The notes beneath the pieces are model-generated. The model did no database searches, was not told the DNA's origin, and was given only the letters and a program-made list of their open reading frames with translations. From assembly GCF_054482525.1 (NCBI RefSeq), contig NZ_CM137006.1: a stretch of DNA of 64,000 nucleotides. One strand, given 5' to 3'. This document shows, one piece after another, positions 2,208 to 48,191 of this stretch. The translations under genes were made by a program, and so were the position numbers. Positions within the stretch are counted from its first letter, which is position 1, and each line of letters opens with the position of its first letter.

Positions 2208-3326
2208 ATGCATAACCAGGCTCCAATTCAACGTAGAAAATCAACACGTATTTACGTTGGGAATGTGCCGATTGGCGATGGTGCTCCCATCGCCGTACAG
2301 TCCATGACCAATACGCGCACGACAGACGTCGAAGCAACGGTCAATCAAATCAAGGCGTTGGAACGTGTTGGCGCTGATATCGTCCGTGTCTCCGTACCGA
2401 CGATGGACGCGGCAGAAGCGTTCAAACTCATCAAACAGCAGGTTAACGTGCCGCTGGTGGCTGACATCCATTTCGACTATCGCATTGCGCTGAAAGTAGC
2501 GGAATACGGCGTCGATTGTCTGCGTATTAACCCTGGCAATATCGGTAATGAAGAGCGTATTCGCATGGTGGTTGACTGTGCGCGCGATAAAAACATTCCG
2601 ATCCGTATTGGCGTTAACGCCGGATCGCTGGAAAAAGATCTGCAAGAAAAGTATGGCGAACCGACGCCGCAGGCATTGCTGGAATCCGCCATGCGCCATG
2701 TTGATCATCTTGATCGCCTGAACTTCGATCAGTTCAAAGTCAGCGTGAAAGCGTCAGACGTCTTCCTCGCTGTTGAGTCTTATCGTTTGCTGGCAAAACA
2801 GATCGATCAGCCGCTGCATCTGGGGATCACCGAAGCGGGTGGCGCGCGCAGCGGGGCGGTTAAATCCGCCATTGGTTTAGGTCTGCTGCTGTCTGAAGGC
2901 ATCGGCGACACGCTGCGCGTATCGCTGGCGGCCGATCCGGTTGAAGAGATCAAAGTCGGTTTCGATATTTTGAAATCGCTGCGTATCCGTTCGCGAGGGA
3001 TCAACTTCATCGCCTGCCCGACCTGTTCGCGTCAGGAATTTGATGTTATCGGTACGGTTAACGCGCTGGAGCAACGCCTGGAAGATATCATCACTCCGAT
3101 GGACGTTTCGATTATCGGCTGCGTGGTGAATGGCCCAGGTGAGGCGCTGGTTTCTACACTCGGCGTCACCGGCGGCAACAAGAAAAGCGGCCTCTATGAA
3201 GATGGCGTGCGCAAAGACCGTCTGGACAACAACGATATGATCGACCAGCTGGAAGCACGCATTCGTGCGAAAGCCAGTCAGCTGGACGAAGCGCGTCGAA
3301 TTGACGTTCAGCAGGTTGAAAAATAA
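2208..3326 (+). CDS. ispG: 4-hydroxy-3-methylbut-2-enyl diphosphate synthase IspG
   Basis: 372 aa ORF; recalled IspG/GcpE sequence incl. C-terminal CPTC...C cluster motif. Confidence 0.95.
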
Positions 3327-11475: not shown

Positions 11476-13053
11476 ATGACGGAAAACATTCATAAGCATC
11501 GCATCCTCATTCTGGACTTCGGTTCTCAGTACACTCAACTGGTTGCGCGCCGCGTGCGTGAACTGGGTGTTTACTGCGAACTGTGGGCGTGGGATGTGAC
11601 AGAAGCACAAATTCGTGACTTCAACCCAAGCGGCATTATTCTTTCCGGCGGCCCGGAAAGCACCACCGAAGAAAACAGCCCGCGCGCGCCGCAGTATGTC
11701 TTTGAAGCAGGCGTACCGGTATTCGGCGTTTGCTATGGCATGCAGACCATGGCAATGCAGTTGGGCGGTCACGTTGAAGCCTCTAACGAACGTGAATTTG
11801 GCTACGCGCAGGTTGAAGTCGTAAACGACAGCGCACTGGTTCGCGGTATCGAAGATGCGCTGACCGCAGACGGTAAACCGCTGCTCGATGTCTGGATGAG
11901 CCACGGCGATAAAGTTACCGCTATCCCGTCCGACTTCGTCACCGTAGCCAGCACCGAAAGCTGCCCGTTTGCCATTATGGCTAACGAAGAAAAACGCTTC
12001 TATGGCGTACAGTTCCACCCGGAAGTGACTCACACCCGCCAGGGTATGCGCATGCTGGAGCGTTTTGTGCGTGATATCTGCCAGTGTGAAGCCCTGTGGA
12101 CGCCAGCGAAAATTATCGACGATGCTGTAGCTCGCATCCGCGAGCAGGTAGGCGACGATAAAGTCATCCTCGGCCTCTCTGGTGGTGTGGATTCCTCCGT
12201 AACCGCAATGCTGCTGCACCGCGCTATCGGTAAAAACCTGACTTGCGTATTCGTCGACAACGGCCTGCTGCGTCTCAACGAAGCAGAGCAGGTTCTGGAT
12301 ATGTTTGGCGATCACTTTGGTCTGAACATTGTTCACGTTCCGGCAGAAGCTCGCTTCCTGTCAGCGTTGGCCGGCGAAAACGATCCGGAAGCAAAACGTA
12401 AAATCATCGGGCGCGTTTTCGTTGAAGTATTCGATGAAGAAGCACTGAAACTGGAAGACGTGAAGTGGCTGGCGCAGGGCACTATCTACCCTGACGTTAT
12501 TGAATCTGCCGCATCTGCAACCGGTAAAGCACACGTCATCAAATCTCACCACAACGTGGGCGGCCTGCCGAAAGAGATGAAGATGGGGCTGGTTGAACCG
12601 CTGAAAGAGCTGTTCAAAGACGAAGTGCGTAAGATTGGTCTGGAGCTGGGCCTGCCGTACGACATGCTGTACCGTCACCCGTTCCCGGGACCAGGCCTCG
12701 GCGTTCGTGTACTGGGCGAAGTGAAGAAAGAGTACTGCGACCTGCTGCGCCGTGCTGACGCCATCTTCATTGAAGAACTGCGTAAAGCGGACCTGTACGA
12801 CAAAGTCAGCCAGGCATTCACCGTCTTCCTGCCGGTACGTTCCGTTGGCGTAATGGGCGATGGTCGTAAGTATGACTGGGTTGTCTCTCTGCGTGCTGTC
12901 GAAACCATCGACTTTATGACCGCACACTGGGCGCACCTGCCGTATGACTTCCTCGGTCGCGTTTCCAACCGCATTATCAATGAAGTGAACGGTATTTCCC
13001 GCGTGGTGTATGACATCAGCGGCAAGCCACCAGCGACTATTGAGTGGGAATGA
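11476..13053 (+). CDS. guaA: GMP synthase (glutamine-hydrolysing)
   Basis: 525 aa ORF; GATase domain plus SGGVDSS PP-loop; recalled GuaA. Confidence 0.95.
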
Positions 13054-13245: not shown

Positions 13246-14496
13246 GTGCTTACCGATACAAAATTAAAAAACCTCAAGCCGCAGGACAAACTGTACAAGG
13301 TCTCCGATCGTGACGGGCTGTATGTAGCTGTGCTTACGTCAGGCACGGTCTCGTTTCGCTATGACTACCGTATCAACGGTCGTCGCGAAACACTGGTAAT
13401 CGGGCAGTATGGGCGTGACGGTATCAGCCTGGCAGAAGCGCGAGAAGAACTGATTGCTGCAAAGAAGCTGCTTAAAGCAGGCCAGTCGCCGGCTGCGGCT
13501 AAACGTGACGGTATCAAAAAGATTCGTGGTGCCGAGACGTTTGCGGTACATACCGACAGTTATATGAAACACGTCATCCTGGCTGACAGTACCCGCGCAA
13601 TGAAGCAGGCGGTGATTGACCGTGACATACTTCCGGTTCTTGGTAACAAAATGATGGCTGAAATTACCACATCGATGGTTCGTGATTTGTGTGACCGGAT
13701 TGTCGAACGCGGTGGTCGGGCAACAGCAGTACAGGCCAGGGAGATCATCAGCAGCGTATACCGTCACGCCAATGACCGTGGTCATGGTTTGTTTAATCCT
13801 GCGGCTGACATTAAACCTTCGTCTATCGCCATATTTAAACCACGAGAGCGAACACTGACACCAGAAGAAATTGGCCTGTTCTTCCGCACGCTGGATGCCA
13901 TTGGTGCTATGGGCACTATGAAAATGGCTTTAAAGCTGGTGCTTATCACTATGGTTCGTAAAGGCGAATTCACCAACGCAACGTGGGATGAAATAGATTT
14001 TAAAAAATGGACATGGACAATTCCTTCAGACCGCATGAAGGGAAGCCGGGCGCACGTTATTTACCTGCCTAAACAGGCTCAGGATATATTGGTCGGGTTG
14101 CAGATGTGCGCTGGTGGAAGTGAATATCTGGTTCCTGGTCGTTACAATTTCCGGAAGCCATTATCTAATGCCGCGCTGAACTCTCTGATCGACAGAACGG
14201 TGAAAATAATAAATGAAGATGGTGAGCATATTCAGGGCTTCACCGTACACGATATGCGCCGTACAGCCAGTACGTTGTTGCATGAGGCTGGTTATCCTTC
14301 AGACTGGATTGAAAAGGCTCTGGCACATGAGCAGAAAGGTGTGCGCGCCGTATATAACAAAGCGGAATACGCCAGACAGCGCGCCTACATGTTGCAGCAG
14401 TGGGCCGATATGATTGATTCCTGGATTAACGGGGAGCATACGGATCTGATTCCGTTCTCCCCGTCGAAGTTTGAGAAGTGGATGGCGGGGGAATAA
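13246..14496 (+). CDS. int: Tyrosine integrase (P4-type, with N-terminal arm-binding domain)
   Basis: 416 aa ORF with GTG start; N-terminus typical of P4-family integrases; catalytic-domain R...HDMRRT...Y pattern. Confidence 0.85.
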   Translation: MLTDTKLKNLKPQDKLYKVSDRDGLYVAVLTSGTVSFRYDYRINGRRETLVIGQYGRDGISLAEAREELIAAKKLLKAGQSPAAAKRDGIKKIRGAETFAVHTDSYMKHVILADSTRAMKQAVIDRDILPVLGNKMMAEITTSMVRDLCDRIVERGGRATAVQAREIISSVYRHANDRGHGLFNPAADIKPSSIAIFKPRERTLTPEEIGLFFRTLDAIGAMGTMKMALKLVLITMVRKGEFTNATWDEIDFKKWTWTIPSDRMKGSRAHVIYLPKQAQDILVGLQMCAGGSEYLVPGRYNFRKPLSNAALNSLIDRTVKIINEDGEHIQGFTVHDMRRTASTLLHEAGYPSDWIEKALAHEQKGVRAVYNKAEYARQRAYMLQQWADMIDSWINGEHTDLIPFSPSKFEKWMAGE

Positions 14497-14690: not shown

Positions 14691-15353
14691 TCATGCAGCA
14701 CGCTCCCGCCCCTGGTTGTCTGTTGGTGACATCGGAGAATTGCTGAATGCATTTGTTAATCCGCCAATATCCAACGCGTATCCTGGGTGTAGTTGCACTG
14801 CCGGGCCTTCGCACTGGTTACCCCAAACATCGAAGCCATGAGACGTCTGGCGGGCGAACAGTTCAATGCGAGAAACATCGCCTAACAATTGCACAAGTTT
14901 TTCACGAACGACATCTGGTTTTCTTGAATGCTCAAGCCGCGGTGCGGTAAATGACTGAACGATACCTGCATTAATGCGCGGAGGTAGTTTTCCCTTTACT
15001 GCAAACAGGCAATCTTCACTATTGGCGCGAGTCATGTGTCCCATACCCATAACCAGTTTATCTGGTTGTCGACTACCACATTTTATCCACGTGAAGCCCT
15101 TCATGGTCATCAGACGGAATCCCCAGGCTTCAACAACTTTTAGTGCTTCGAGTGGTTGTGTTGGCACCCACCACATGGCCAACAGACAGTTTTCATCGGC
15201 CAAATCCCACACAGGAAGGCGGCAGATATCCAGCACACTCATAACAGGATATTTAAAACCGGCACCGCGATTACCATCTGCGGCTTTGTCCCGGTATACC
15301 CAGGGTGGATCTGCATAGATTAGTGTGTATTTCTTAGTCATAAACCACCCCAC
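14691..15353 (-). CDS. DNA N6-adenine methyltransferase, MT-A70-like (orphan)
   Basis: 220 aa ORF; LIYADPPW motif IV; no adjacent restriction endonuclease candidate. Confidence 0.7.
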   Translation of the reverse strand: MGWFMTKKYTLIYADPPWVYRDKAADGNRGAGFKYPVMSVLDICRLPVWDLADENCLLAMWWVPTQPLEALKVVEAWGFRLMTMKGFTWIKCGSRQPDKLVMGMGHMTRANSEDCLFAVKGKLPPRINAGIVQSFTAPRLEHSRKPDVVREKLVQLLGDVSRIELFARQTSHGFDVWGNQCEGPAVQLHPGYALDIGGLTNAFSNSPMSPTDNQGRERAA

Positions 15354-15633
15354 AACATCCTATGCCGCTATAGTCGCCACGGCGAAGGCCGTTACCTTTT
15401 GTGATACATTGGTCCCTGCGAACCGCGATCCTTGCACGTTCAACATCACCAGAAGCAACATCCATACACTGAAGCCAAAGGTGAGCGGCAATGCGGAATT
15501 GCCCTTTTTTCTCTCTTTCAATCGCGCGTTTTTCGATCTCTATCGCCGCAGGAGTAACGGCGACAATCTTTGAAGGGCTGCGCATTGAAACCTTGTTCAT
15601 GTGATATTTTTCAAGTCGGCTTAACTTTCTCAC
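15334..15633 (-). CDS. Hypothetical phage protein
   Basis: 99 aa ORF in early-left operon overlapping methylase start; start codon uncertain. Confidence 0.35.
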   Translation of the reverse strand: MRKLSRLEKYHMNKVSMRSPSKIVAVTPAAIEIEKRAIEREKKGQFRIAAHLWLQCMDVASGDVERARIAVRRDQCITKGNGLRRGDYSGIGCCGVVYD

Positions 15634-18051: not shown

Positions 18052-18272
18052 ATCTCGTTATCGTTGGCCACATCGCGAGCTTCTTTGCTGACGAAAGCCC
18101 ACTTAATACCTTCCTGTAAGGTGCGGAACTTCCAGCTCATGAATCCGCATGCAGTAACGCAGTACCAACCGTTGATGATTTTCCACTGCATAACTTGTTA
18201 CCTCGGTTTGTTACCGTTGAGGTAATGATTATGCGTATTTGGTTTGGTGTCAATAGATATGAGTTAAAAAAA

Positions 18273-18287
18273 TTACCCACAAGGTAA
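18273..18287. promoter_or_regulatory. TTACC-N5-GGTAA motif at the early-left promoter position (OL-like)
   Basis: TTACCcacaaGGTAA between repressor 3' end and start of leftward operon. Confidence 0.5.
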
Positions 18288-18344
18288 TCTTGCTGGCAAT
18301 AAAAAAGCCGCCATGAGGCGGCTTACTTGCTGAAAACTATAGTT

Positions 18345-18929
18345 TTATTGTTTGCTTTTTTCGTTCTGGTTGATGACAAATTCAATGTAACTTTCGATCT
18401 TTGCTTTCTCGGTTTCGGGTAACAATGCGTAGCGCGAGCGGTCATAGTTGATAGTCGCAGGGTCGTGCGGGTGAATCAGTAATTCATAGCCGTGACGCCC
18501 GAATGCGGATGCAACATTCTCCAGGGTGGAAATGGAAACGCTGACCTCATTGTTTAACAGGCGGCTGATTGTCACCTGGGCGACGCCGGATGCGCGGTGA
18601 AGTTTTCCCTGTGTTGAAAGGTCGCGGCTTTCGCTCATCCAGCGTTCCAGGTTGTGAGCCGCCAGCTGACCAATGTCGCTTGGGCCGACAGGCTGAAAAC
18701 CTTCCTGAGAAAGCGAGCGATCGATATCAAGCCAGTTACGGGGTTTATTGGCGGCAGCTTCAATTTTTCGCGCAACCTGGTCGCCGATAACCTTCTTACC
18801 AAGAGCCCAGCGGTTTACCAGATTTGCCTGAGTTCCAAGTTTTTCTGCCATCCGCGTCTGAACACCATTGAATTCACGGTCGATCAAGTCGTTGAGATTT
18901 TGCCTGCGGACGTCCTGGATACTTTTCAT
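18345..18929 (-). CDS. Prophage repressor, two HTH domains, no LexA-like peptidase domain
   Basis: 194 aa; two HTH-like segments; divergent from Cro-like gene; no GxSM/K autocleavage motif seen. Confidence 0.6.
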   Translation of the reverse strand: MKSIQDVRRQNLNDLIDREFNGVQTRMAEKLGTQANLVNRWALGKKVIGDQVARKIEAAANKPRNWLDIDRSLSQEGFQPVGPSDIGQLAAHNLERWMSESRDLSTQGKLHRASGVAQVTISRLLNNEVSVSISTLENVASAFGRHGYELLIHPHDPATINYDRSRYALLPETEKAKIESYIEFVINQNEKSKQ

Positions 18930-18984
18930 TTTCTGGAAAATCGCCTCATATATGAATCAGTAGATGATTCAATTTAAAGCAATA

Positions 18985-19047
18985 TTACCCAACAGGTAAA
19001 TGCACCCCATAGGTAACTATCCTTGATTTTTGTTACCTTATGGGTGA
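18985..19047. promoter_or_regulatory. Operator region between repressor and cro-like gene: TTACCcaacaGGTAA (18985-18999) and TTACCttatgGGTgA (19033-19047)
   Basis: Two palindromic sites in the divergent promoter region. Confidence 0.55.
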
Positions 19048-19083
19048 ATATTTATTATCTGAAATAAATATCAGGCAATAGCT

Positions 19084-19314
19084 ATGAGCGATAACGGACA
19101 TTTCGATTTCAAAAAGCACTGGCTTGCACTTACTCCGGATGAGCGTGAAGCCTTCGCACAGGAAGCCGGAACGACGAGTCACTATATACAGACTCACTTA
19201 ACAGGTAAGCGCAAAATGCCAGGTAAGGTATTGATGAATGGGCTTTTTAAAGCCTGTAAAACAAGACAATGGCTGCGCTCAAAAGCAGAACTGGCATACT
19301 TCTTCTACTCATGA
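19084..19314 (+). CDS. Cro-like HTH regulator
   Basis: 76 aa; HTH segment; divergent from repressor. Confidence 0.55.
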   Translation: MSDNGHFDFKKHWLALTPDEREAFAQEAGTTSHYIQTHLTGKRKMPGKVLMNGLFKACKTRQWLRSKAELAYFFYS

Positions 19315-19336
19315 TATCCAGCCACAACCCTCTGTA

Positions 19337-19360
19337 GACCGCCACCCGGCGGTCTTTTCA
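19337..19360 (+). terminator. Rho-independent terminator after cro-like gene
   Basis: GACCGCC-accc-GGCGGTC followed by TTTT. Confidence 0.6.
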
Positions 19361-19369
19361 TATCTATTC

Positions 19370-19384
19370 GTACCTCAAAGGTAA
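19370..19384. promoter_or_regulatory. gTACC-N5-GGTAA motif (variant) after cro terminator
   Basis: GTACCtcaaaGGTAA. Confidence 0.35.
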
Positions 19385-19675: not shown

Positions 19676-20486
19676 GGTTGAAGTTATCACTCCTGATAAA
19701 CCTGAAATTTTTCAGATAGCAGAAATTCTGGGTATTGATCCAGATGCTGTTCTTGGAAAGCTGGTTCGTATATGGGCATGGGCTGACCAGCAAACAATAG
19801 ACGGTAACGCTGGCAGCGTTACAAAAGGAGTACTTGATAGACTCGCTTTTATTACAGGATTTGCTGACGCCCTCATTAGCGTCGGATGGCTTGCTTATCA
19901 TGACGGCAAACTAATTCTTCCAAACTTTGAGCGACACAATGGAGAATCATCGAAAAAACGTGCACTTACGAATAGAAGAGTGGCAGAGCATCGAAAACGA
20001 GTAACGCAAAAAGTAACGCCAACAGCGTTACAAAAGGAGTTACCAGAGGAAGAGGAAGAGGAAGATATATATAAAACCCCACACATAGCGCACGTGCGCG
20101 AGGGTGCTCCGACCAGTGAAGCGAACAGTACGCCGTTGCAGGTGGCAGAACCTGAATTTCTGGATGGCCTGAGTGAACCCATCGGGAAATTTCCGATGAC
20201 AGATGGCTGGCTACCGTCGCCAGATTTTCGGCGGCGTGCTGCGCTGTGGGGAACGGCCCTGCCGGAACCGGAATTTACACCTGCTGAACTTGCTGCATTC
20301 CGGGATTACTGGATGGCTGAGGGCAAAGTGTTCACGCAGGTTCAGTGGGAACAAAAATTCGCCAGGCACGTAAATCATATCAGGGGAAAATCAAAAAATG
20401 CCGGGAAAAGCGATGAGCTTGACTGGAATAACACTGACTGGATAGAAGGGGTGTGGGATGAAATCAACTCCAGAACTTCTCAATGA
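19638..20486 (+). CDS. Replication initiation protein (O-like / DnaT-domain-like)
   Basis: 282 aa; acidic linker; immediately upstream of and overlapping lambda-P-like gene. Confidence 0.5.
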   Translation: MQEGKPMASSWIKVEVITPDKPEIFQIAEILGIDPDAVLGKLVRIWAWADQQTIDGNAGSVTKGVLDRLAFITGFADALISVGWLAYHDGKLILPNFERHNGESSKKRALTNRRVAEHRKRVTQKVTPTALQKELPEEEEEEDIYKTPHIAHVREGAPTSEANSTPLQVAEPEFLDGLSEPIGKFPMTDGWLPSPDFRRRAALWGTALPEPEFTPAELAAFRDYWMAEGKVFTQVQWEQKFARHVNHIRGKSKNAGKSDELDWNNTDWIEGVWDEINSRTSQ

Positions 20487-21286: not shown

Positions 21287-21333
21287 TAAAATGTTCTAAT
21301 CTCTATTGATTTCATGTCTTATGTGGTTTTTAA

Positions 21334-24415: not shown

Positions 24416-25215
24416 CCACTATTACCAAAGAACGTATTGAATTGTTCATTAAAAATCCGCTTGAAAACGGGCTTACTCGTGGCGAACAAATGGAACTGGC
24501 ACGAATTGCACTGGCATCACTGGAACGCGAACAGATTCGCCACGAGCATGCCAAATGGTCTGACTCCACATTTGGCTGCGTTGGCCCCATTGGTCCACTG
24601 AAACACCTCTCAAAAGAGGCACTGGAAGCCGCAGCCGAACCAGACGATCTTAGCGAGTGGGCTGATATGCAGTTTCTGTTGTGGGATGCACAGCGCCGTG
24701 CTGGCATCAGCGATGCTGAAATTAACGTTGCTATGGAAGATAAATTGAAGATCAACATGGAGCGCCAGTGGCCTGAGCCAAAAGATGGTGAGCCTCGCTT
24801 GCACATTAAAGAACCCGGCAACTCTCCGGTAATTCCGGATGGTTTATCCACGGTATGCGCTGAGGCTTATCAGGTTGTAGGAGTTATGGCAGATGCGCTT
24901 GGTGTATTCGGTGATGCAGCAGTACAGAACGTTCTGGATAACCTGTCACAGCAAAAACTTGTTCACAGAGATGTGCTGCCGTTCTCGCTTCCGGCAACTC
25001 CGGATGGTTGGATAAGCTGTAGTGATCTAATGCCGGAAGACACCAAAATGTTACTGGCATTTAGTCAAGGTGAAATCGTGGCAGCATATTGGAACTGGGT
25101 TGTAAATCCAATTGATTACAAAAAATATAGAGCTTTCACGTATTTATCAGGAAATATCTTGGATGACGTAACCCACTGGATGCCGCTACCAGAACCGCCG
25201 CAGGAGGTGAAGTGA
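24412..25215 (+). CDS. Phage protein with C-terminal DUF551-like domain
   Basis: 267 aa; C-terminal W-rich segment ending HWMPLPEPP. Confidence 0.5.
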   Translation: MTTITKERIELFIKNPLENGLTRGEQMELARIALASLEREQIRHEHAKWSDSTFGCVGPIGPLKHLSKEALEAAAEPDDLSEWADMQFLLWDAQRRAGISDAEINVAMEDKLKINMERQWPEPKDGEPRLHIKEPGNSPVIPDGLSTVCAEAYQVVGVMADALGVFGDAAVQNVLDNLSQQKLVHRDVLPFSLPATPDGWISCSDLMPEDTKMLLAFSQGEIVAAYWNWVVNPIDYKKYRAFTYLSGNILDDVTHWMPLPEPPQEVK

Positions 25216-25565
25216 TGGACTATTCACAGTTAAGTGATTTTGAAATTAACAGAATGGTAGGAGACATAATTTTTAAAGGCCTTTGGGCGTGTAAACCGGA
25301 AACATCAGGGAATAACACCAACAAATGGTATTACGGAAATACTGATACAACTTTTGAGCCATTAAACCCTTTACCTGACTACTGCAATAATCCATCGGAT
25401 GCATGGCCTATTATTGTTGATAATAAAATCAGTCTAACCTGCCACCAATCTCGCGGTGAGTGGTCAGCTGTTTTTAATGTCGAGAACATTTGCTTTCATG
25501 CGAATAATCCACTCCGAGCCGCCATGATTGTATTTCTCATGATGCAGGAAAATCAGAATGGCTAA
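25212..25565 (+). CDS. Hypothetical phage protein (NinX/DUF2591-like?)
   Basis: 117 aa ORF; weak recall only. Confidence 0.35.
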   Translation: MMDYSQLSDFEINRMVGDIIFKGLWACKPETSGNNTNKWYYGNTDTTFEPLNPLPDYCNNPSDAWPIIVDNKISLTCHQSRGEWSAVFNVENICFHANNPLRAAMIVFLMMQENQNG

Positions 25566-25896
25566 ATCAGCAGCAGAGCGCAAAGCCGCTCAGAGAGCCA
25601 GACAAGCTGCATCTGGTGTGCGTAAGCTGGAGATTGTGCTTGATGCTCAGGAAATTGAAATGCTTGAGCGTAACTGTGCCGCACGTCGCCCCGGGCGTGC
25701 GCCTTACGAATTTGGTGAGTATATAGCGTTACTGATCCGCCAGGATGATGCACGCGTGCGCGGGCGTATAAAATCGATCAGTAGAAAACGTTGCGGTAAG
25801 TGCGGCGAGAGAGTTCCCGTTAATTCATGCCCGTGTAATGGTGACTCGCAATGCTGGGTGACTAAAGGCTGGTATGAAACGAAATTAATAGTGTGA
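25558..25896 (+). CDS. Hypothetical protein with C-terminal zinc-ribbon; candidate late-gene regulator
   Basis: 112 aa; CGKCG...CPCNGDSQC; last gene before late operon. Confidence 0.3.
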   Translation: MAKSAAERKAAQRARQAASGVRKLEIVLDAQEIEMLERNCAARRPGRAPYEFGEYIALLIRQDDARVRGRIKSISRKRCGKCGERVPVNSCPCNGDSQCWVTKGWYETKLIV

Positions 25897-25982
25897 CATG
25901 TCACGAGTAGATTATGCATGATGAATTTGACGGGTTTTGAATACTGCCGCCAACTATGGCGGCTTTATTTTGCATGGTACTA

Positions 25983-26015
25983 TTACCACAACGGTAACTA
26001 TTACCACGGTGGTTA
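25983..26015. promoter_or_regulatory. Tandem TTACC-N5-GGTAA sites abutting terminase small subunit start
   Basis: TTACCacaacGGTAA (25983-25997) and TTACCacggtGGTtA (26001-26015). Confidence 0.45.
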
Positions 26016-26611
26016 TGATGCCTGCTGAACCTAAAACCTATAAACGCAAATCAACGCAATTTAAGCCACTAACAGCAATGCAGGAGGCTTATTGCCAGTC
26101 ATACATCAAAACGCCTGAAAACCAGACTCAGGCAGCGATTAACGCAGGATTCTCCCCAAATACAGCGGCAGTTAAAGCCAGTGTCATGATGCGCGATGAA
26201 CGCATTCAGAAACGGATTGCCGAGTTGATGGAGGAGCGCAACAAACGAATGCGCGTCAGTGCTGATTACGTTCTCATGCGCCTGGTGGAGATCGACCAGA
26301 TGGACGTTATCGACATCCTCAACGACGATGGGAGCCTTAAACCAATCCGTGAGTGGCCGAAAATCTGGCGCACTACGCTTAGTGGCTTTGATCTGTCATC
26401 GACCATCATGAACATGAACGAGGATTCGATAGAGACAATCCTCAAAAAAATTAAATGGCCTGACAAGGTGAAGAACCTTGAGCTGATTGGTAAGCATGTT
26501 GATGTCAATGCGTTCAAAGAACGTCTGGATGTTAATGTGAATGTGACAATTGCTGATCGCATAGCGGCAGCCAGGAAGAGACTGAAAGAACGTCAGGATG
26601 GCAATCAGTGA
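26015..26611 (+). CDS. Terminase small subunit
   Basis: Start placed at MMPAEPK within ORF 25937-26611; HTH-like N-terminal region; precedes large subunit with 4-nt overlap. Confidence 0.6.
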   Translation: MMPAEPKTYKRKSTQFKPLTAMQEAYCQSYIKTPENQTQAAINAGFSPNTAAVKASVMMRDERIQKRIAELMEERNKRMRVSADYVLMRLVEIDQMDVIDILNDDGSLKPIREWPKIWRTTLSGFDLSSTIMNMNEDSIETILKKIKWPDKVKNLELIGKHVDVNAFKERLDVNVNVTIADRIAAARKRLKERQDGNQ

Positions 26612-28083
26612 CAGATACAGCGTTATCTCCTGAAGAGCAGTTAATTGAGGATATTGCAGGGTTCACTCACGATCCGCTTGGCTATGCCCTCTATGCGTTC
26701 CCGTGGGGGGAAGAGGGGACTGAACTGGCACATGCTACCGGCCCACGTCAGTGGCAGGCCGATGCGTTCCGAGAGATACGTGATCACCTGCAGAATCCAG
26801 AGACGCGTTATCAGCCGCTTATGCTGGCACGTGCTTCTGGTCACGGTATTGGTAAATCCGCATTCATCTCAATGCTCATCAACTGGGGCATGTCCACTTG
26901 CGAGGATTGTAAGGTCGTGGTGACCGCCAACACCGACAACCAGCTACGAACGAAGACCTGGCCGGAAATTATCAAGTGGTCGAACCTTGCTATCACGAAA
27001 GACTGGTTTACCTGTACCGCTACCGCGATGTACAGCAATGACCCTGGGCACGACAAGCGGTGGCGGGCTGACGCAATACCCTGGTCTGAGCACAACACTG
27101 AGGCATTCGCCGGACTACACAACGAGCGCAAACGCATCATCGTGGTGTTTGATGAAGCGTCGAACATTGCGGATCTGGTGTGGGAAGTTGCCGAGGGTGC
27201 GCTTACGGACGAAGACACTGAGATTATTTGGGTGGCGTTCGGAAACCCTACACGTAACACCGGGCGTTTTCGCGAATGTTTCCGCAAATATAAACACCGC
27301 TGGAAAACTGCGCAGATTGACAGCCGGACGGTGGAAGGCACTAACAAACAGCAGTTGCAGAAATGGGTTGATGACTACGGGGAAGACAGCGACTTCGTTA
27401 AAATCCGTGTGCGTGGCATATTCCCTGATGCATCTGAATTGCAGTTTATCCCTACCGGTCTTACTGACGAGGCAATGAAACGGGTGGTAACCGCTGCGCA
27501 GGTTGCACATGCTCCGGTGATAATCGGCGTTGACCCGGCATACTCCGGCGTTGATGACGCTGTGATATACCTGCGGCAGGGGCTACACAGTAAGGTGCTG
27601 TGGACTGGCAACAAGACTACCGACGATCTGATTATGGCGAAGCGTATCGCTGACTTTGAAGACCAGTATCAGGCTGACGCGGTGTTCATCGACTTCGGTT
27701 ACGGAACCGGTTTGAAGTCAATCGGTGACGGCTGGGGTCGTACATGGCAACTTGTTCCGTTCGGTGGCGCGTCTACTGACCCGCAGATGCTCAACAAGCG
27801 TGGGGAGATGTTCAACTCATGCAAGACATGGCTGAGGCTCGGTGGCATGCTGGATGACCAGGAAACAGCGGACGACCTGTCGGCAGCAGAGTACAAAGTT
27901 CGAGTGGACGGTAAAATCGTTATCGAACCGAAGGAAGATATCAAAGAGCGACTTGGGCGTTCTCCTGGTAAAGGCGATGCGCTACTGCTGACGTTTGCGT
28001 TCCCTGTGTCGAAGCGTCTGCGAATTCCCGGTCAGCAGAACCAGCAAGGCAAGGCCATCACAGATTACGATCCCTATGCTTAA
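26608..28083 (+). CDS. Terminase large subunit
   Basis: 491 aa; Walker A-like GHGIGKS; ATPase-nuclease architecture. Confidence 0.8.
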   Translation: MTDTALSPEEQLIEDIAGFTHDPLGYALYAFPWGEEGTELAHATGPRQWQADAFREIRDHLQNPETRYQPLMLARASGHGIGKSAFISMLINWGMSTCEDCKVVVTANTDNQLRTKTWPEIIKWSNLAITKDWFTCTATAMYSNDPGHDKRWRADAIPWSEHNTEAFAGLHNERKRIIVVFDEASNIADLVWEVAEGALTDEDTEIIWVAFGNPTRNTGRFRECFRKYKHRWKTAQIDSRTVEGTNKQQLQKWVDDYGEDSDFVKIRVRGIFPDASELQFIPTGLTDEAMKRVVTAAQVAHAPVIIGVDPAYSGVDDAVIYLRQGLHSKVLWTGNKTTDDLIMAKRIADFEDQYQADAVFIDFGYGTGLKSIGDGWGRTWQLVPFGGASTDPQMLNKRGEMFNSCKTWLRLGGMLDDQETADDLSAAEYKVRVDGKIVIEPKEDIKERLGRSPGKGDALLLTFAFPVSKRLRIPGQQNQQGKAITDYDPYA

Positions 28084-28173
28084 TCCGCTGGTGGGGATAA
28101 TGTCGTTGATATCCTCTGGTGAGGATAAAACAAAGCCAGCTCATAGGCTGGCTGTTTGTGACATGTCACAGAG

Positions 28174-28596
28174 CTAGAAAATAATTTCATCAAATGCAGC
28201 ATTTATTGCCTTTGCTTCGCTAATGGCGCCTTGTTTATCGACAATAGCTTTTTTACCAAGCACCTCGGCAAGGCACTGTAGCTTCATGTTGTATAAGTGT
28301 TCGCTCATGTAATCATTATCACTTTTTGCTTTAGCGCAAACAGAGCGAGAAATATCAAACACATCGCCTTTTTCCATTTCAGAACGTTGTGCTGTTATCC
28401 AGTCATGGAACGTAACGCTAGTACCATGGTCTTCGCTAAGAGTTAACCCGGTCAGTCCCTCACTCTGAATTACTTCGTAATGCATTTCATTACCAGCAAA
28501 AACGCCATAAAAAACGCAGTCTTCAGCCTGAACGATACGAGAATATTTTAATGGCCATTCATTTAGATACTTAGCCAACATATCAATTGTTTTCAT
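28174..28596 (-). CDS. Hypothetical protein (moron, opposite strand inside late region)
   Basis: 140 aa ORF antisense to the late operon, downstream of tRNA-Arg on same strand. Confidence 0.45.
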   Translation of the reverse strand: MKTIDMLAKYLNEWPLKYSRIVQAEDCVFYGVFAGNEMHYEVIQSEGLTGLTLSEDHGTSVTFHDWITAQRSEMEKGDVFDISRSVCAKAKSDNDYMSEHLYNMKLQCLAEVLGKKAIVDKQGAISEAKAINAAFDEIIF

Positions 28597-28794
28597 GATC
28601 TCACCTTAAAAAAATGCCCGGCGAACCGGGCGAACTGGAAGCAATGAGTTATGCCTTCCGTGGCTGTACGGGTTTACAGCATGAAGTCATCGCAATGGCG
28701 TCCTGCTGTAAAAAGGGCGGTGATAGTCCTTCAAGGGAAACCATCACCGCCAAGCACCTGGAACTTCTGGCATCACGGTCCTTAGGCGTGATTC

Positions 28795-28871
28795 TGGCGC
28801 GGCATGCAGGATTCGAACCTGCGACCAACCGCTTAGAAGGCGGTTGCTCTGTCCAACTGAGCTAATGCCAC
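28795..28871 (-). tRNA. tRNA-Arg (anticodon UCU), phage-encoded
   Basis: Hand-folded cloverleaf: 7-bp acceptor stem, D-arm GCTC/GAGC, anticodon loop CTTCTAA, T-arm GCAGG-TTCGAAT-CCTGC, 3' CCA encoded. Confidence 0.85.
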
Positions 28872-32198: not shown

Positions 32199-33191
32199 AT
32201 GACAATGGCTGTTAAAGGCTTAACTGCGCTAACGCTGGCTGACTGGGGTAAGCGCGTCGATCCAAACGGGAAAGTCGATAAGATTATCGAGCTTCTCGGT
32301 CAAACTAACCCGATCCTTCAGGATATGCCTTTTGTCGAAGGGAACCTTCCTACCGGACACCGAACCACTATTCGTTCTGGTTTACCTTCAGCTACCTGGC
32401 GTTTGCTGAACTATGGCGTACAGCCAAGCAAATCAACCACAGTGCAGGTAACCGATTCCGTTGGCATGCTGGAAACCTATGCGGAAGTCGATAAGTCACT
32501 GGCTGATCTGAACGGCAATACCGCCGAATTCCGCCTGTCTGAAGACCGCGCATTTATTGAAGCGATGAATCAGCAGATGGCGCAGACGCTGTTTTATGGT
32601 GATTCCAGCGTTAACCCTCAGCAGTTTATGGGACTGTCCTCCCGCTATTCCAGCCTGTCTGCGGGTAATGCTCAGAATATCATTGATGCTGGTGGCACGG
32701 GTACAGATAACACCTCAATCTGGTTAGTGGTGTGGGGCGAAAACACCGTGCATGGCATCTTCCCGAAAGGGCAGAAGGCTGGCATCCAGATGGAAGATAA
32801 AGGCCAGGTGACACTGGAAGATGCTAATGGCGGCAAGTACGAAGGCTATCGCACCCATTACAAATGGGATAACGGACTTGCTCTGCGTGACTGGCGTTAT
32901 GTTGTTCGCATTGCAAACATCGATGTCAGCAATCTTTCAGAACCATCCTCTGCCGCAAATATTGCGAAGTTGATGGTTAAAGCACTACATCGCATTCCAA
33001 ACCGTGGCATGGGCCGCCCGGTGTTCTACATGAACCGCACTGTAGGCCAGGCTCTTGATCTGCAGTCTCTGGAGAAAACATCTCTGGCTATCAGCGTAAA
33101 AGAGACAGAAGGCGAGTGGTGGACTTCATTCCGTGGTGTACCAATCCGTGAAACTGATGCGCTTCTGGAAACAGAAGCCCGCGTGGTGTAA
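32199..33191 (+). CDS. Major capsid protein
   Basis: 330 aa; position after scaffold; followed by hairpin. Confidence 0.65.
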   Translation: MTMAVKGLTALTLADWGKRVDPNGKVDKIIELLGQTNPILQDMPFVEGNLPTGHRTTIRSGLPSATWRLLNYGVQPSKSTTVQVTDSVGMLETYAEVDKSLADLNGNTAEFRLSEDRAFIEAMNQQMAQTLFYGDSSVNPQQFMGLSSRYSSLSAGNAQNIIDAGGTGTDNTSIWLVVWGENTVHGIFPKGQKAGIQMEDKGQVTLEDANGGKYEGYRTHYKWDNGLALRDWRYVVRIANIDVSNLSEPSSAANIAKLMVKALHRIPNRGMGRPVFYMNRTVGQALDLQSLEKTSLAISVKETEGEWWTSFRGVPIRETDALLETEARVV

Positions 33192-35005: not shown

Positions 35006-37476
35006 TGGCTATCAGTTGGATCCAGCCCAGCTTTGCCGGTGGTGAGATTGGACCGTCGTTGTACGGACGTATCGACATGGCGAAGTACCAGGTGGCATTG
35101 CGCAAGTGCGATAACTTTATCGTGCGGCAGTATGGCGGCGTTGAGAATCGACCTGGTACGCGTTTTGTCGGTGCCGCCAAATACCCAAATCGGAAATGCC
35201 GCCTGATCCCGTTCCAGTTCTCGACGGTTCAGACCTATGCTCTGGAGTTCGGACACCAGTACATGCGCGTTATCAAAGATGGTGCGTTGGTGCTGAACAG
35301 CAGCAATGTTATTTATGAAATTGCCACGCCATATACTGAAGCCGATCTGTTCCGAATTAAATTTACGCAAAGCGCCGACGTGCTTACGCTGGTTCACCCG
35401 GCATACCCGCCGAAAGAGTTGCGCCGCTATGCGCATGACAACTGGCAACTGGTTGATGTGGTAACGAAGAACGGGCCATTTGAAGATATCAATATTGACG
35501 AGTCAGTGACGGTTTATGCCAGCGCCAGCACTGGGACAATTACGTTAACGGCAAGCGCCTCTATTTTTGGCGCGGAGCAGGTAGGCAAATTGTTCTATCT
35601 GGAACAGCCTGCAGTGGATTCTGTGCCGGTATGGGAAACCAGTAAGAGTACGTCGATTGGCGATATTCGCCGTGCAGACAGTAACTACTATCGCGCCGTT
35701 ACAGCAGGAAAAACAGGCACTTTGCGCCCTTCGCATACAGAAGGCACATCATGGGATGGCTGGGGCGGATCCGGTGATGATGATACTGGCATTGAGTGGG
35801 AGTATCTGCACAGTGGTTTTGGCATTGCCCGTATAACTGCTGTAAATGGCACTACTGCAACTGCTGAGGTGATTTCCTATATCCCTTCGCAGGTCGTTGG
35901 CGAGGATAATGCCAGCTATAAATGGGCTAAATATGCCTGGAACAGTGTTAATGGTTATCCTGGCACTGTTGTTTATTATCAACAACGTCTTTACTTCGCC
36001 GCATCGACTGCGTTCCCTCAGACTATCTGGGCCAGCCGTACTGGGGATTATAAGGATTTTGGCAAAAGCAATCCTACGCAGGATGACGACAGAATTATCT
36101 ACACCTATGCCGGGCGTCAGGTTAATGAGATCCGCCACCTGATTGATGTTGGTTCGCTGGTGGCGCTGACTTCCGGAGGTGAGTATGTCATCACCGGCGA
36201 CCAGAACAAAGTGTTAACCCCATCATCATTTGCATTCAGCTCTCAGGGATCAAATGGCTCAAGCAACGTCCCGCCAATTGCCGTGGCGAATATTGCTTTG
36301 TTCGTCCAGGAGAAAGGCAGTGTTGTACGTGATCTGGCCTACTCATTCGATGTTGACGGCTATCAGGGGAACGACCTGACCATCCTTGCCAATCATCTTT
36401 TTCAGAAGCACAGCATTGTTGACTGGTGCTTCTCGATTGTCCCTTACTCCAGCGCCTTCTGCATTCGTGATGACGGTAAATTGCTGGTGATGACCTATTT
36501 GCGTGATCAGCAGGTTTTTGCATGGGCACCACAATCCAGTACCGGGAAATATGAAAGCACATGCAGTATCAGCGAAGGCAATGAAGATGCGGTGTATTTC
36601 GTCGTTAACCGAACCGTTAACGGGCAAACAGTGAGATACATAGAGCGACTGTCCAGCCGTTTATTTACCAGCGATGAAGATGCTTTCTTTGTTGATTCTG
36701 GCCTTAGCTATGATGGAAGAAATACGTCTGACAGAACGATGACCATCACTGGTGGTTCTGGTGAATGGGATTACCGCGCGGAATATACAATCAGTATTTC
36801 TGGTGGTGCGTACTTCACCAGTAGTGATGTCGGTGCGCAACTACAATTCCCTTATACCGGAACTGATCCTGATACTGGCGATGAAGTGTCAAAAGAATTA
36901 CGTTGCGACATTATTTCTGTAACCAGCAATACCGCTGTAGTGGTTCGTCCTAACAGGAACGTCCCATCATCCCTCAGGAATGTGGCCACCACGAACTGGC
37001 AGATGGCGCGCCGGACATTTGGAGGCCTGTCTCATCTTGAAGGCCAGATCGTAAACATTCTCTCTGATGCGAACGTGGAACCACAGAAAGTTGTTTCCGG
37101 AGGTGCCGTCACGCTGGAATCTCCGGGGGCTGTAGTGCACATCGGCCTGCCAATAACTGCTGAATTCGAAACACTGGATATCAACATTAGCGGACAGGAA
37201 ACGCTGCTGGACAAAAAACAGGTGATCCCGTCCGTTACTCTGGTTGTGAATGCCAGTCGCGGCATCTGGGCGACTACGCCCGGCGGTAAATGGTACGAAT
37301 ATCCACAGCGTGAATTCGAGTTCTACGATGATCCTGTTGATGATGCTACCGGAAAAGTAGAAGTGAAACTGGACAGTAACTGGGGCAAAAACGGGCGTGT
37401 AAAAATCCGTCAGCTTGACCCGTTGCCGCTGTCTGTTCTTGCCGTTATTCCTCGCCTTACTGTTGGGGGAGTCTGA
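35005..37476 (+). CDS. Large tail protein (nozzle/tubular-B-like)
   Basis: 823 aa; assigned by size and position. Confidence 0.45.
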   Translation: MAISWIQPSFAGGEIGPSLYGRIDMAKYQVALRKCDNFIVRQYGGVENRPGTRFVGAAKYPNRKCRLIPFQFSTVQTYALEFGHQYMRVIKDGALVLNSSNVIYEIATPYTEADLFRIKFTQSADVLTLVHPAYPPKELRRYAHDNWQLVDVVTKNGPFEDINIDESVTVYASASTGTITLTASASIFGAEQVGKLFYLEQPAVDSVPVWETSKSTSIGDIRRADSNYYRAVTAGKTGTLRPSHTEGTSWDGWGGSGDDDTGIEWEYLHSGFGIARITAVNGTTATAEVISYIPSQVVGEDNASYKWAKYAWNSVNGYPGTVVYYQQRLYFAASTAFPQTIWASRTGDYKDFGKSNPTQDDDRIIYTYAGRQVNEIRHLIDVGSLVALTSGGEYVITGDQNKVLTPSSFAFSSQGSNGSSNVPPIAVANIALFVQEKGSVVRDLAYSFDVDGYQGNDLTILANHLFQKHSIVDWCFSIVPYSSAFCIRDDGKLLVMTYLRDQQVFAWAPQSSTGKYESTCSISEGNEDAVYFVVNRTVNGQTVRYIERLSSRLFTSDEDAFFVDSGLSYDGRNTSDRTMTITGGSGEWDYRAEYTISISGGAYFTSSDVGAQLQFPYTGTDPDTGDEVSKELRCDIISVTSNTAVVVRPNRNVPSSLRNVATTNWQMARRTFGGLSHLEGQIVNILSDANVEPQKVVSGGAVTLESPGAVVHIGLPITAEFETLDINISGQETLLDKKQVIPSVTLVVNASRGIWATTPGGKWYEYPQREFEFYDDPVDDATGKVEVKLDSNWGKNGRVKIRQLDPLPLSVLAVIPRLTVGGV

Positions 37477-45472: not shown

Positions 45473-45769
45473 ATGCAAGCTATAGGATTCATTGTTTATA
45501 TCGTCGTTGGTCTTTTTCAGTTGGCAGCAATTATGGCTGGGCTTGAATCATGGTGGGGATTGCACTGGATAATTGCAGCCCCCATTGCTTTCATCGTGAG
45601 CTATATTCCATTTGTTGGAGCGATTGTTGGTATGGTTGGCGCTGTGGATGTATGGCGGTGGGAGTGGTGGCAGGCTGGCCTTCTCTTCTTTGGTGGGATC
45701 ATCTTTGCTATTGTCTGCGGTGGAATGTCATCATTTTTCGAATGGCTATCATTCAGAAAAGGGACGTGA
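45473..45769 (+). CDS. Small membrane protein (about 3 TM)
   Basis: 98 aa hydrophobic ORF. Confidence 0.5.
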   Translation: MQAIGFIVYIVVGLFQLAAIMAGLESWWGLHWIIAAPIAFIVSYIPFVGAIVGMVGAVDVWRWEWWQAGLLFFGGIIFAIVCGGMSSFFEWLSFRKGT

Positions 45770-46032
45770 CATGTCACAGGCCGCTTTCGCGGCCTTGTTT
45801 TTAACGAATGCCACCGCCGCCCGGACGGGAATCCGCAGAACGCCCACCGCAGCGGGAGCCGTCAGCGGCAGTATCGCTGTCGTGCTGACAACGACCGGCA
45901 AAGGCCTGAGTTGAAGCTACCAGAGACAACAAAACGAACAGTGCAGCAAATGCTTTTTTCATTGTGAAATTTCCATCTATAAGCCACCTCAATGTGGCGT
46001 CAATGAGTGTAGCACTGACTTTTGTTTCGTCC

Positions 46033-46055: not shown

Positions 46056-46601
46056 TTATTCCTTCCATTTATCAGAAAAAAGATCTTCTTCTAAAGGCAT
46101 TGGTTCTGTTTTTGTTTTCTCAAAGAATTGATAACTGATAGTGATTGCTGCCTCTTTAAACTCTTCTTGCTCAGTTATGTTGTGGGCATCTGCGTCAACA
46201 AAAAACATAACCAGCGCATCACGATTGTGATTTACCGAATAAACTAAAAAGCAATTACTTGTTGGTATGCATTTTACTTGCACAGACGCTATTTTTTTCC
46301 ATGCATCCCAAGATGATTTTTTACCAGTGTGTTTTTTATCACTATCTTCTGGAATATAGTCTTGGTTATCGACATGAGTATGCCTGACATTTAGTTTAAG
46401 CATTTCTGTCGGACGAGCAAATGCAGCATCTTTACCAAGAGATGGATGGTATCCCGTTTTCCAATACTGGGTAAAGGCATCAGATACTTTCTTCAGCTCA
46501 AGATCAGATGCACAAAGGGCCGAGAAATTTTGCGTATGCAATACTCGACCCTTATATCTGACAATTTGATTTTTATCATTCTGCGACGCAGACGAACTCA
46601 T
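46056..46601 (-). CDS. YafO-like toxin candidate with N-terminal extension
   Basis: 181 aa from ATG with AAGGA RBS; C-terminal part resembles recalled YafO core. Confidence 0.4.
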   Translation of the reverse strand: MSSSASQNDKNQIVRYKGRVLHTQNFSALCASDLELKKVSDAFTQYWKTGYHPSLGKDAAFARPTEMLKLNVRHTHVDNQDYIPEDSDKKHTGKKSSWDAWKKIASVQVKCIPTSNCFLVYSVNHNRDALVMFFVDADAHNITEQEEFKEAAITISYQFFEKTKTEPMPLEEDLFSDKWKE

Positions 46602-46755
46602 AATTTTCCTTATTGTTACGAGAATCAAAGAAAGCGCGGGATACGCGACTTGCGTGATCTTTTGTCATAGTAACTTTTACGCACTCTACGCTTCCATTGA
46701 AAGAACGTCTTGCGGCAGCTTGCGCTCTACGCATCTGCAATTTTTCGTTTCGCAT
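46576..46755 (-). CDS. Small basic protein, candidate antitoxin/regulator
   Basis: 59 aa hand-translated ORF (below ORF-track cutoff) with GAGGT RBS; 3' end overlaps toxin start by 26 nt. Confidence 0.3.
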   Translation of the reverse strand: MRNEKLQMRRAQAAARRSFNGSVECVKVTMTKDHASRVSRAFFDSRNNKENYEFVCVAE

Positions 46756-46902: not shown

Positions 46903-47598
46903 TCAGAAGAACCCTGCCTTGTCGTTGATGTACTCCGCGTGCGTCTGGATATCACGCAGGCATTTGCTCACACCGACGATGTAGCAGAACATGGTGGTCA
47001 GCTCCGCCGCCGCGCCCGATACGTCGTGCCCGTCGTCCTGTAACTGGTTCAGCAGATTCATCAGCAGTGAGTTCTCCGTCAGGCCGAGAACACCAGACGG
47101 CGAATGAATCAGGCTGCGGTAGCCGGGCTTCAGTGGGGCACTGTAGGTTTTGTTCTCTATCTTCATCGCCTGCATCACTGCTGATGCTGTGGCGTTGGCT
47201 ACCTGGTCGGCAACCATCTTTATGCGCTCTTCCTGCGGGAGCGAGTTTTTAATGTAACTTCCGGTGCGGCGGATCTGAGGAAGAACCTCACCTGTAACCC
47301 ATTTACGAAAGCGGTATGGGATAGTGCCTGGTGTCACTGCGTCGCGGCAGCGGAGGATCAGTGTGTAGAGGCCTGACTCGGAGATGATGATCGATTCTTG
47401 CTCACCGCCAGGGGTGTCGGTTGAAGCGACGCCCTTCTCATCATCATCAAGTTTTCGAACAGCATCTCGATGGTTTGCTATGCCTATAGCCCGACAAACA
47501 TCTGAAGCGATAAACCATGGCTCACCATTAATGACGATTACTCGTATATCGGCTTGGGATTCGAAAGAAAAAATGGACGTGCTTTTTGTAGCTGTCAT
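46903..47598 (-). CDS. BRO-N domain antirepressor-like protein
   Basis: 231 aa; N-terminal Bro-N-like pattern (INGEPWFIASDVCRAIG); C-terminal domain paralogous to ORF 47914-48171. Confidence 0.6.
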   Translation of the reverse strand: MTATKSTSIFSFESQADIRVIVINGEPWFIASDVCRAIGIANHRDAVRKLDDDEKGVASTDTPGGEQESIIISESGLYTLILRCRDAVTPGTIPYRFRKWVTGEVLPQIRRTGSYIKNSLPQEERIKMVADQVANATASAVMQAMKIENKTYSAPLKPGYRSLIHSPSGVLGLTENSLLMNLLNQLQDDGHDVSGAAAELTTMFCYIVGVSKCLRDIQTHAEYINDKAGFF

Positions 47599-48171: not shown

Positions 48172-48191
48172 CTTAATCTTCTCCATGCAAT

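Follow-up and report, generated by a model that had tools for sequence, protein, structure and literature searches.

Features at the boundary between the early and late genes

The stretch of DNA analysed, referred to below as the window, comprises 64,000 nucleotides (nt) of contig NZ_CM137006.1 (RefSeq assembly GCF_054482525.1) and contains an epsilon15/phiV10-type (Uetakevirus-type) prophage, of which the junction between the last early gene, encoding a 112-residue protein, and the small terminase subunit gene terS is considered here. An earlier note on this DNA had described that gene as the last before the late operon, with a cysteine-containing C-terminus, and had suggested that its product might activate the late genes through TTACC-N5-GGTAA sites preceding terS. 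The gene was found as described, with terS next to it, and two features absent from that note, a palindrome (25893-25904) and an intrinsic terminator (T1, 25946-25972), were identified between them. The order in the window is the last early gene, the palindrome with an overlapping promoter-like match, T1, two sites attributed to the prophage repressor Rep, and terS, as follows:

25558-25896, plus strand: open reading frame (ORF) of the 112-residue protein, ATG to TGA, epsilon15 gp49 / N15 gp46 family (phrog_536)
25893-25904: palindrome 1, GTGACATGTCAC, 12 bp and perfect, containing the TGA of the ORF (25894-25896); candidate site of the 112-residue protein
25893-25922, plus strand: putative, weak sigma-70-like promoter match, GTGACA-18-CATGAT (9/12)
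25946-25972, plus strand: intrinsic terminator T1, GCCGCCAACTATGGCGGC with tail TTTATTTT, between the ORF and terS
25983-25997: predicted Rep operator, TTACCACAACGGTAA, perfect, upstream of terS
26001-26015: predicted Rep operator-like site, TTACCACGGTGGTTA, one mismatch, overlapping the ribosome-binding site and start codon of terS
26006-26611, plus strand: terS (Terminase_2, E=1e-29), with ATG codons at 26003 and 26006

The ORF is the final one upstream of terS and its C-terminal end reads ...CGKCGERVPVNSCPCNGDSQCWVTKGWYETKLIV. T1 consists of a 7-bp stem, with six G-C pairs, and a 4-nt loop, and the stem is kept in epsilon15 and PAT1. The -35-like hexamer of the promoter match (GTGACA) is the left arm of palindrome 1 and has the counterpart GTGACA-17-TAAATT in epsilon15, whereas no convincing sigma-70 promoter was found between T1 and terS by inspection or by a computed scan. 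In a near-identical genome the Prokaryotic Genome Annotation Pipeline (PGAP) places the start of terS at a TTG at 25937 (25937-26611), which is probably wrong, since this start would read through T1 and the annotated epsilon15 start aligns with the ATG at 26006.

Family and predicted fold of the 112-residue protein

The 112-residue protein gave no Pfam match at E<=0.01, the Q, Ogr/Delta, RinA and ArpU families included, and neither this ORF nor the other early ORFs tested matched a Q, N, RinA, ArpU or Ogr profile, in agreement with the earlier view that the protein is not Q-like. Searches of the ORF and the intergenic region against PDB sequences, Pfam and Rfam returned nothing above threshold. 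The sole PHROGs family assigned to the protein was phrog_536, described as 'transcriptional regulator' (E=1e-53), and the epsilon15 record itself notes the link between gp49 and N15 gp46. Members of the family were found by tblastn in 153 phage records from Escherichia, Salmonella, Klebsiella, Enterobacter, Yersinia, Pectobacterium, Vibrio and Aeromonas; the family is small, with 153 cluster representatives at 50% identity among 1.8 billion. Residues R8, R13, E54, L59, C79, C82, P87, G95 and C99 are invariant or nearly so.

An AlphaFold (AF2) model of the monomer, based on 56 sequences, reached a predicted local distance difference test score (pLDDT) of 91.5 and comprises a basic N-terminal helix, an extended segment (residues 20-29), helices at residues 30-42 and about 52-75, a zinc-ribbon-like hairpin and a final helix. 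The cysteines of the C-terminal zinc ribbon are C79, C82, C91/C93 and C99. In a fused-dimer model, in which two copies were joined by a flexible linker, residues 22-28 formed beta-strands in both copies, and the models contain a strand-helix-helix unit with an antiparallel ribbon between the subunits. The protein is likely to be a dimeric ribbon-helix-helix (RHH) DNA-binding protein with a C-terminal zinc ribbon and a site of its own, the palindrome GTGAC-N2-GTCAC. The fold assignment rests on the models because curated RHH profiles scarcely detect the family: one or two of the 56 members match RHH_5, RHH_1 or RepB-RCR_reg, at E=0.013-0.07. No Q, Ogr/Delta, RinA or ArpU family was among the 25 families listed in a Pfam scan of the same 56 members, a list that includes every family matched by more than one member. 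The gene is not discussed in the paper on vB_EcoP_ZX5.

A palindrome accompanying the gene family

Three exact copies of the 12-mer GTGACATGTCAC are present in the window (at 25893, 28158 and 45766), against an expected 0.05 occurrences of GTGAC-N2-GTCAC. Copies 2 and 3 and the adjoining terminator T3 are placed as follows:

28158-28169: palindrome 2, GTGACATGTCAC, between the stop of a 140-residue gene (28174-28596, minus strand) and terminator T2 (28134-28153, minus strand), just downstream of terL
45766-45777: palindrome 3, GTGACATGTCAC, containing the TGA of the 98-residue last structural gene (45473-45769)
45779-45802, plus strand: intrinsic terminator T3, GGCCGCTTTCGCGGCC followed by TTGTTTTT, beginning 1 nt after palindrome 3

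Palindrome 2 lies 4 nt past the stop of the 140-residue gene and 4-5 nt ahead of T2, and 42 nt separate palindrome 1 from T1. Epsilon15 has three palindromes at orthologous places (copies 2 and 3 at 2142 and 19517 of locus L003), and in both the window and epsilon15 each copy is placed where a stop codon is followed by an intrinsic terminator. Across the E. coli and Salmonella relatives the block TGTGACATGTCACGA does not vary and is followed by a spacer with an 18-nt indel and many substitutions; the non-coding half of palindrome 1 is kept despite the indel in its flank. Of the known sites considered for the palindrome, a CRP site (TGTGA-N6-TCACA) and a SlmA site (GTGAGTACTCAC) were rejected on spacing or sequence, and a true matS was rejected on the 2-bp centre and the lack of any matS in the window.

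Loci of the relatives were obtained by exact-sequence look-ups of the cluster representatives. A perfect palindrome was present at, or within about 230 nt of, the family gene in 11 of 14 divergent lineages (31-100% protein identity), in most cases with a terminator and then lysis or packaging genes after it; the chance of one perfect site in a 600-bp span is about 6 in 10,000. In the window type, N15, L018, L020 and L021 the site includes the TGA of the family gene itself, while the site follows the stop by 2 nt in ZF40 (67% identity) and by 7 nt in Chlobot. It falls within the 3' end of the gene in a Mu-like element, where the gene is directly upstream of GemA and Mor, on the start codon of the family gene and around the TGA of the upstream gene in L015, and 138-225 nt downstream of the gene in L014, L023 and Vibrio phage K303. 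K303 has three perfect palindromes, the additional copies each standing 20 nt ahead of a gene, terS in one case and a different gene in the other; N15 (35% identity) has GTGACTGGTCAC around the stop and two further perfect copies, three in all. The site of L019 carries one mismatch. Shared descent does not account for this distribution, because displaced or duplicated copies occur with proteins that are only 31-36% identical. As the site accompanies the gene in 11 of the 14 lineages, with a low chance expectation and with descent insufficient, the protein most likely recognises the GTGAC-N2-GTCAC palindrome, a conclusion drawn from sequence comparison.

One of the N15 copies (28550-28561 of locus L005) is found in the leader region of the antirepressor (immC), with a promoter-like minus-strand TTGACG-18-TAGAGT about 25 bp downstream of it, which hints that N15 gp46 regulates the immC antirepressor operon rather than the late genes.

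The TTACC-N5-GGTAA sites as probable Rep operators

Ten perfect copies of TTACC-N5-GGTAA are present in the window, all within the prophage, against 0.01 expected, and no shuffle reached ten. The earlier note had counted two such sites before terS; that at 25983-25997 is perfect, while that at 26001-26015 has one mismatch. Epsilon15 keeps the same terS pair, one perfect and one single-mismatch site 18 bp apart. The gene to which the motif points, and the sites around it, are:

18345-18929, minus strand: CI-type repressor Rep, 194 residues, helix-turn-helix (HTH)
18211-19047: predicted operators around rep, with sites at 18211, 18273, 18985 and 19033

The best match to a leftward promoter, PL (TTGACA-17-AATCAT, 18253-18225), lies between sites 18211 and 18273, which are 62 bp apart, and sites 18985 and 19033 are at the rightward promoter match, PR (TTGTTA-17-TATTAT, 19030-19058), 19033 having one mismatch and lying inside PR; the repressor gene is thus flanked on both sides by sites at divergent early promoters. 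Sites of this type also stand upstream of every plus-strand operon of the prophage. Rep is homologous to the repressor of Salmonella phage SPC32H (PDB 5D50, E=1.7e-41) and shares 43% identity overall with epsilon15 Rep, the N-terminal HTH region being kept, including the stretch NLVNRW, a putative recognition helix.

Epsilon15 has 12 perfect sites, and those checked occupy orthologous places (before terS, before the portal operon and beside rep). Seven sites are annotated in its GenBank record as 'protein_bind, repressor, lysogeny', including one at 12-27 directly before terS and others preceding the portal and tailspike operons; the features given as 'repressor' (12-27, 2931-2947, 19895-19911, 32479-32632 and 35906-35922) have TTACC-N5-GGTAA sequences. 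Among the loci fetched, the motif was found in L001, L002, L003, L006 and L007, which are Uetakevirus-type loci with Rep homologues, and no copy was found in the other 18, among them three complete genomes, those of N15, the lambdoid phage Chlobot and Vibrio phage K303. These three (Chlobot with an 88% identical homologue) and 11 partial loci without the motif all encode homologues of the 112-residue protein.

Since the motif flanks rep, carries a repressor-binding annotation in epsilon15 and is missing from other phages with a homologue of the 112-residue protein, the sites at 25983 and 26001 are very probably operators of Rep, within a set of ten perfect and a few one-mismatch sites; this identification relies on the epsilon15 GenBank annotation and comparative data. 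Rep is accordingly the probable binder of TTACC-N5-GGTAA, and the operators are ordinary ones, already known from the epsilon15 annotation. They mark the early-left, early-right, middle, terS-terL, portal and tailspike units, each of which is probably silenced directly by Rep in the lysogen. With the motif assigned to Rep, the prophage-wide pattern needs no alternative explanation of the kind the earlier note had offered in the 112-residue protein.

A search for sigma-70 promoters at the other operators gave poor matches only (for example -35 TTACCT with -10 TCTAAT or TATATT, at 21272 and 48249), and upstream of terS not even these were seen. The sequence ATGTGGTTW occurs solely at 21321, 29253 and 48296, each time 32-44 nt downstream of a Rep operator preceding a plus-strand operon, and might be a promoter-proximal element, although a count of three is not significant, being reached in 13 of 100 shuffles. 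A terminator (AGACCGCCACCCGGCGGTCT with a T-rich tail, 19336-19384 region) directly follows the cro-like gene at 19084-19314, and a Rep-like site with one mismatch is present at 19370; the early-right operon is therefore interrupted by a terminator-operator pair, as at terS. A perfect LexA box, CTGTATATTTATACAG (48184-48199), upstream of a minus-strand 90-residue gene (47914-48186), adjoins the Rep operator at 48249 and is near a Bro-N (antirepressor-type) gene (46903-47598), which suggests, by analogy, an SOS-controlled antirepressor module like that of SPC32H.

Proposed role at the early-late boundary

It is tentatively proposed, by analogy, that the 112-residue protein may fill the role of lambdoid Q, controlling how transcription proceeds from the early region to the late genes; we consider this possible, if short of probable. 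As the last early product, the protein would bind palindrome 1, and the bound protein would let RNA polymerase cross T1, most likely by antitermination, or possibly by activation of an adjoining promoter, so that terS-terL would be switched on once enough of the early product had accumulated. The palindrome-terminator pairs at 28158 and 45766 would then serve as additional control points at operon ends. If the protein is the regulator, it would work via GTGAC-N2-GTCAC and not via TTACC-N5-GGTAA. Compared with the earlier note, the case for the protein as the missing late-gene regulator is somewhat strengthened, because no Q-like protein is detectable, the gene precedes the late operon and has a conserved palindrome of its own, and a terminator stands before the late genes.

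The arrangement recurs in relatives. In several phage lineages that are unrelated to one another, the family gene immediately precedes a late operon of lysis genes, packaging genes or both, and the layout of gene, palindrome, leader, strong terminator and late genes was found in L018, K303, L023, L019 and L014, in which holin or lysis genes come next, and, as far as the terminator, in L020. A promoter-like match was detected in three of these: in L018 the palindrome at the stop is followed by TTGACA-17-TATCTT, two terminators, holin and lysozyme; in K303 by TTGAAA-17-TATGTT, a terminator with a 12-bp stem, holin and, later, terS, with no Q annotated among its 66 genes; and in L023 a weaker match overlaps the palindrome ahead of the terminator. 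L019, L014 and L020 have the terminator without a detected promoter.

Several observations weigh against a late-gene switch. The promoter-like match in the window is poor (9/12) and its position is not kept across the 18-nt indel. N15, ZF40, Chlobot and L011 each encode a Q-like protein besides the family member, and 2 kb separate the N15 family gene from the late promoter annotated in that phage. T1 has been lost from a Klebsiella relative, which keeps the palindrome and operator. Palindromes 2 and 3 are at convergent operon ends, where no late promoter is needed and antitermination would be pointless or harmful, and read-through of the minus-strand gene that palindrome 2 serves would run antisense to terL. 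RHH proteins, moreover, are usually repressors. Two further observations weigh against recognition of the palindrome by the protein. No palindrome was found near the family gene in L011 or in the P2-like Yersinia locus L009, and the strand residues vary across the family while the arms of the DNA site are invariant, so that the palindrome would be read either by the invariant Arg8 and Arg13 of the N-terminal helix or by a conserved host factor.

In the Klebsiella relative, phage ST11-OXA245phi3.2, a umuD-like gene (2790-3245 of locus L007) lies between the palindrome and the Rep operator, in the place of T1, with its own LexA box (TACTGTTTAAATATACAGTA) and promoter (TTGACT-17-TACTGT), and is thus SOS-controlled.

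The joint explanation in three layers, namely Rep operators, a protein-palindrome pair and a Q-like switch, is given slightly less than even credence. Broader, and doubtful, is the suggestion that the family represents an unrecognised class of late switch, in which small RHH and zinc-ribbon dimers on a matS-like stop-codon palindrome license polymerase past the terminator guarding a lysis or packaging operon; such a class, in temperate phages of Escherichia, Salmonella, Klebsiella, Yersinia, Pectobacterium, Vibrio and Aeromonas, may correspond to Q in function while having an unrelated fold. No phage paper came up when the literature was searched for the palindrome sequences, and the combination of the 112-residue protein, the stop-codon palindrome and the recurring layout of palindrome, terminator and late genes appears to be undescribed.

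Two systems that the earlier note had merged are now separate, Rep, apparently silencing each operon directly through about a dozen operators, on the one hand, and the protein-palindrome pair on the other. The question bears on a gap in the understanding of late-gene control in epsilon15/phiV10-type phages and in many Vibrio, Aeromonas and other prophages without Q. If the module does act by antitermination or activation, a new family would join the small list of phage late regulators, and a conserved gene present in more than 150 sequenced phages would be given a function. The likeness of the palindrome to matS also raises the question of cross-talk with host chromosome organisation.

Alternative explanations

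The alternative that survives best, though rather unlikely, is that the protein is a helper of terminators or an insulator. An RHH repressor or roadblock would bind the palindromes and reinforce the boundaries at T1, T2 and T3, and the late operons would fire from Rep-controlled promoters on inactivation of Rep, with no dedicated activator. That all three palindromes, in epsilon15 as in the window, separate a stop from an intrinsic terminator, with two at convergent gene ends, fits this explanation, as do the Rep operators ahead of each plus-strand operon, the recurrence of a terminator and then a Rep-like site past the cro-like gene, and the typical function of RHH proteins as repressors. The Q-like genes of N15, ZF40, Chlobot and L011 and the umuD-like replacement of T1 in the Klebsiella relative likewise speak for a roadblock. 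Nevertheless, no convincing sigma-70 promoter accompanies the terS operators; the strong terminator directly before the lysis genes in K303, L018, L019 and L023 would block late expression unless overridden; and a roadblock made as the last early product would close the late route when it is needed.

Improbable, in our estimation, is a MatP/matS-like system that organises or bridges the genome, or a protein that targets matS-like or SlmA-like sites of the host and so disturbs chromosome handling or division in lytic growth. The host genera of the family (Escherichia, Salmonella, Klebsiella, Yersinia, Pectobacterium, Vibrio and Aeromonas) do fall in groups that have MatP, and exactly three dispersed sites per genome were found in three unrelated phages. 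The arms GTGAC...GTCAC are those of matS, GTGAC[AG]N[TC]GTCAC (PMC3603311, PMC3116907), and hhalign places both RHH helices in register with MatP residues 101-139; however, this match is not significant (probability 0.6%), and the phage protein has neither the N-terminal helical bundle nor the C-terminal coiled coil of MatP. The centre of the site is 2 bp and not 3, the window has no true matS even when one mismatch is allowed, and the tight association of the sites with stop codons, terminators and late-operon leaders points to transcription.

It is decidedly improbable that the palindrome is read by a conserved host protein, or acts through the RNA or DNA structure of the terminator region, and travels with the gene only through the overlap with its stop codon. 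In its favour, the arms stay the same although the proteins are only about 30% identical and differ in their strand residues, the outer 4 bp match the ends of the SlmA and MatP sites, and the RNA of the palindrome could form a small 5-bp hairpin. This hairpin is weak, however; the palindrome is neither the matS nor the SlmA consensus; and descent fails to explain the perfect copies 138-225 nt downstream, at a start codon and before terS, in lineages of 31-36% identity.

The model of the earlier note, in which the 112-residue protein, bound to the tandem TTACC-N5-GGTAA sites, activates a late promoter and has the prophage-wide motif as its regulon, can draw on the adjacency of gene and sites, on the failure of profiles and early ORFs to reveal a Q-like protein and on the constant co-occurrence of protein and motif within the Uetakeviruses, but is scarcely credible given that the motif brackets rep at PL and PR with a repressor-binding annotation in epsilon15, that N15, Chlobot, K303 and 11 other family-bearing loci have no site, and that the family has a different conserved palindrome of its own.

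Comparison with known systems

The Rep system of the window is of the SPC32H/epsilon15 type, with a homologous repressor, the same 15-bp inverted repeat and the same places, namely pairs spaced by 62 bp next to rep, a tandem pair upstream of terS and one site each ahead of the portal and tailspike operons. The LexA box beside an antirepressor-type module fits the SPC32H paradigm, and nothing substantial differs, the window operators being predicted from sequence.

With the Q/PR'/tR' system of lambda the window shares a candidate regulator encoded by the last early gene, a DNA site at its 3' end, a short leader, an intrinsic terminator and the late genes; L018, K303 and L023 add a recognisable promoter, with lysis and then packaging genes next, and the annotated late promoter of N15 has the same short promoter-to-terminator layout. 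The 112-residue protein, however, resembles no Q family in sequence or fold, is half as large as Q and is predicted to form an RHH dimer. The phage site is a perfect palindrome on the stop codon, usually upstream of the promoter and not inside it, the family has extra sites at other operon ends, and several phages carry both Q and a family member.

The Ogr/Delta proteins of P2-like phages resemble the 112-residue protein in being small, in having a Cys4 zinc motif and in governing an early-to-late transition through a dyad-symmetric site, as proposed here. The Ogr/Delta site is TGT-N12-ACA at about -55; the 112-residue protein has no Pfam Ogr_Delta match, and both fold and site differ. P2-like Yersinia phages carry a member of the 112-residue family besides their own late activator. 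MatP/matS has in common with the phage pair an RHH core preceded by a basic segment, palindrome arms GTGAC...GTCAC and a similar host range, but the phage protein, which lacks both the four-helix bundle and the coiled coil, has a zinc ribbon instead, and the centre of the phage site measures 2 bp against 3 bp.

Prophage setting and further genes

The identification of the element as an epsilon15/phiV10-type prophage inserted at guaA follows from the positions of guaA and the integrase gene and from the remaining gene order, which is that of epsilon15/phiV10:

11476-13053: GMP synthase (guaA)
13246-14496: integrase

The prophage is a new E. coli member of the Uetakevirus immunity type with a slightly different operator set. 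Bases 25200-26700 of the window are 100% identical to Escherichia phage HEMP4 and 94-98% identical to vB_EcoP_ZX5, TL-2011b, phiV10 and O157 typing phages 9 and 10, and the whole of this stretch is present in about 70 complete E. coli genomes. Phages of the epsilon15/phiV10 type are in use as O157 and Salmonella reporter phages.

Upstream, the 112-residue ORF is preceded by a gene of the NinX family and by one joining a dATP/dGTP pyrophosphohydrolase domain to DUF551. A minus-strand insert (28174-28871) between terL and the portal operon carries the 140-residue gene and a tRNA-Arg(TCT) gene (28795-28871). A gene for a PerC-family transcriptional activator (15334-15633, minus strand; Pfam PerC, E=6e-7) in the early-left operon is another candidate regulator of phage or host. 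In the region that separates the structural operon from the tailspike gene, a search found a weak YafO-like toxin domain at 46056-46628 on the minus strand (E=7e-5, short of the Pfam cut-off), and a YafO toxin is annotated at the matching position in TL-2011b.

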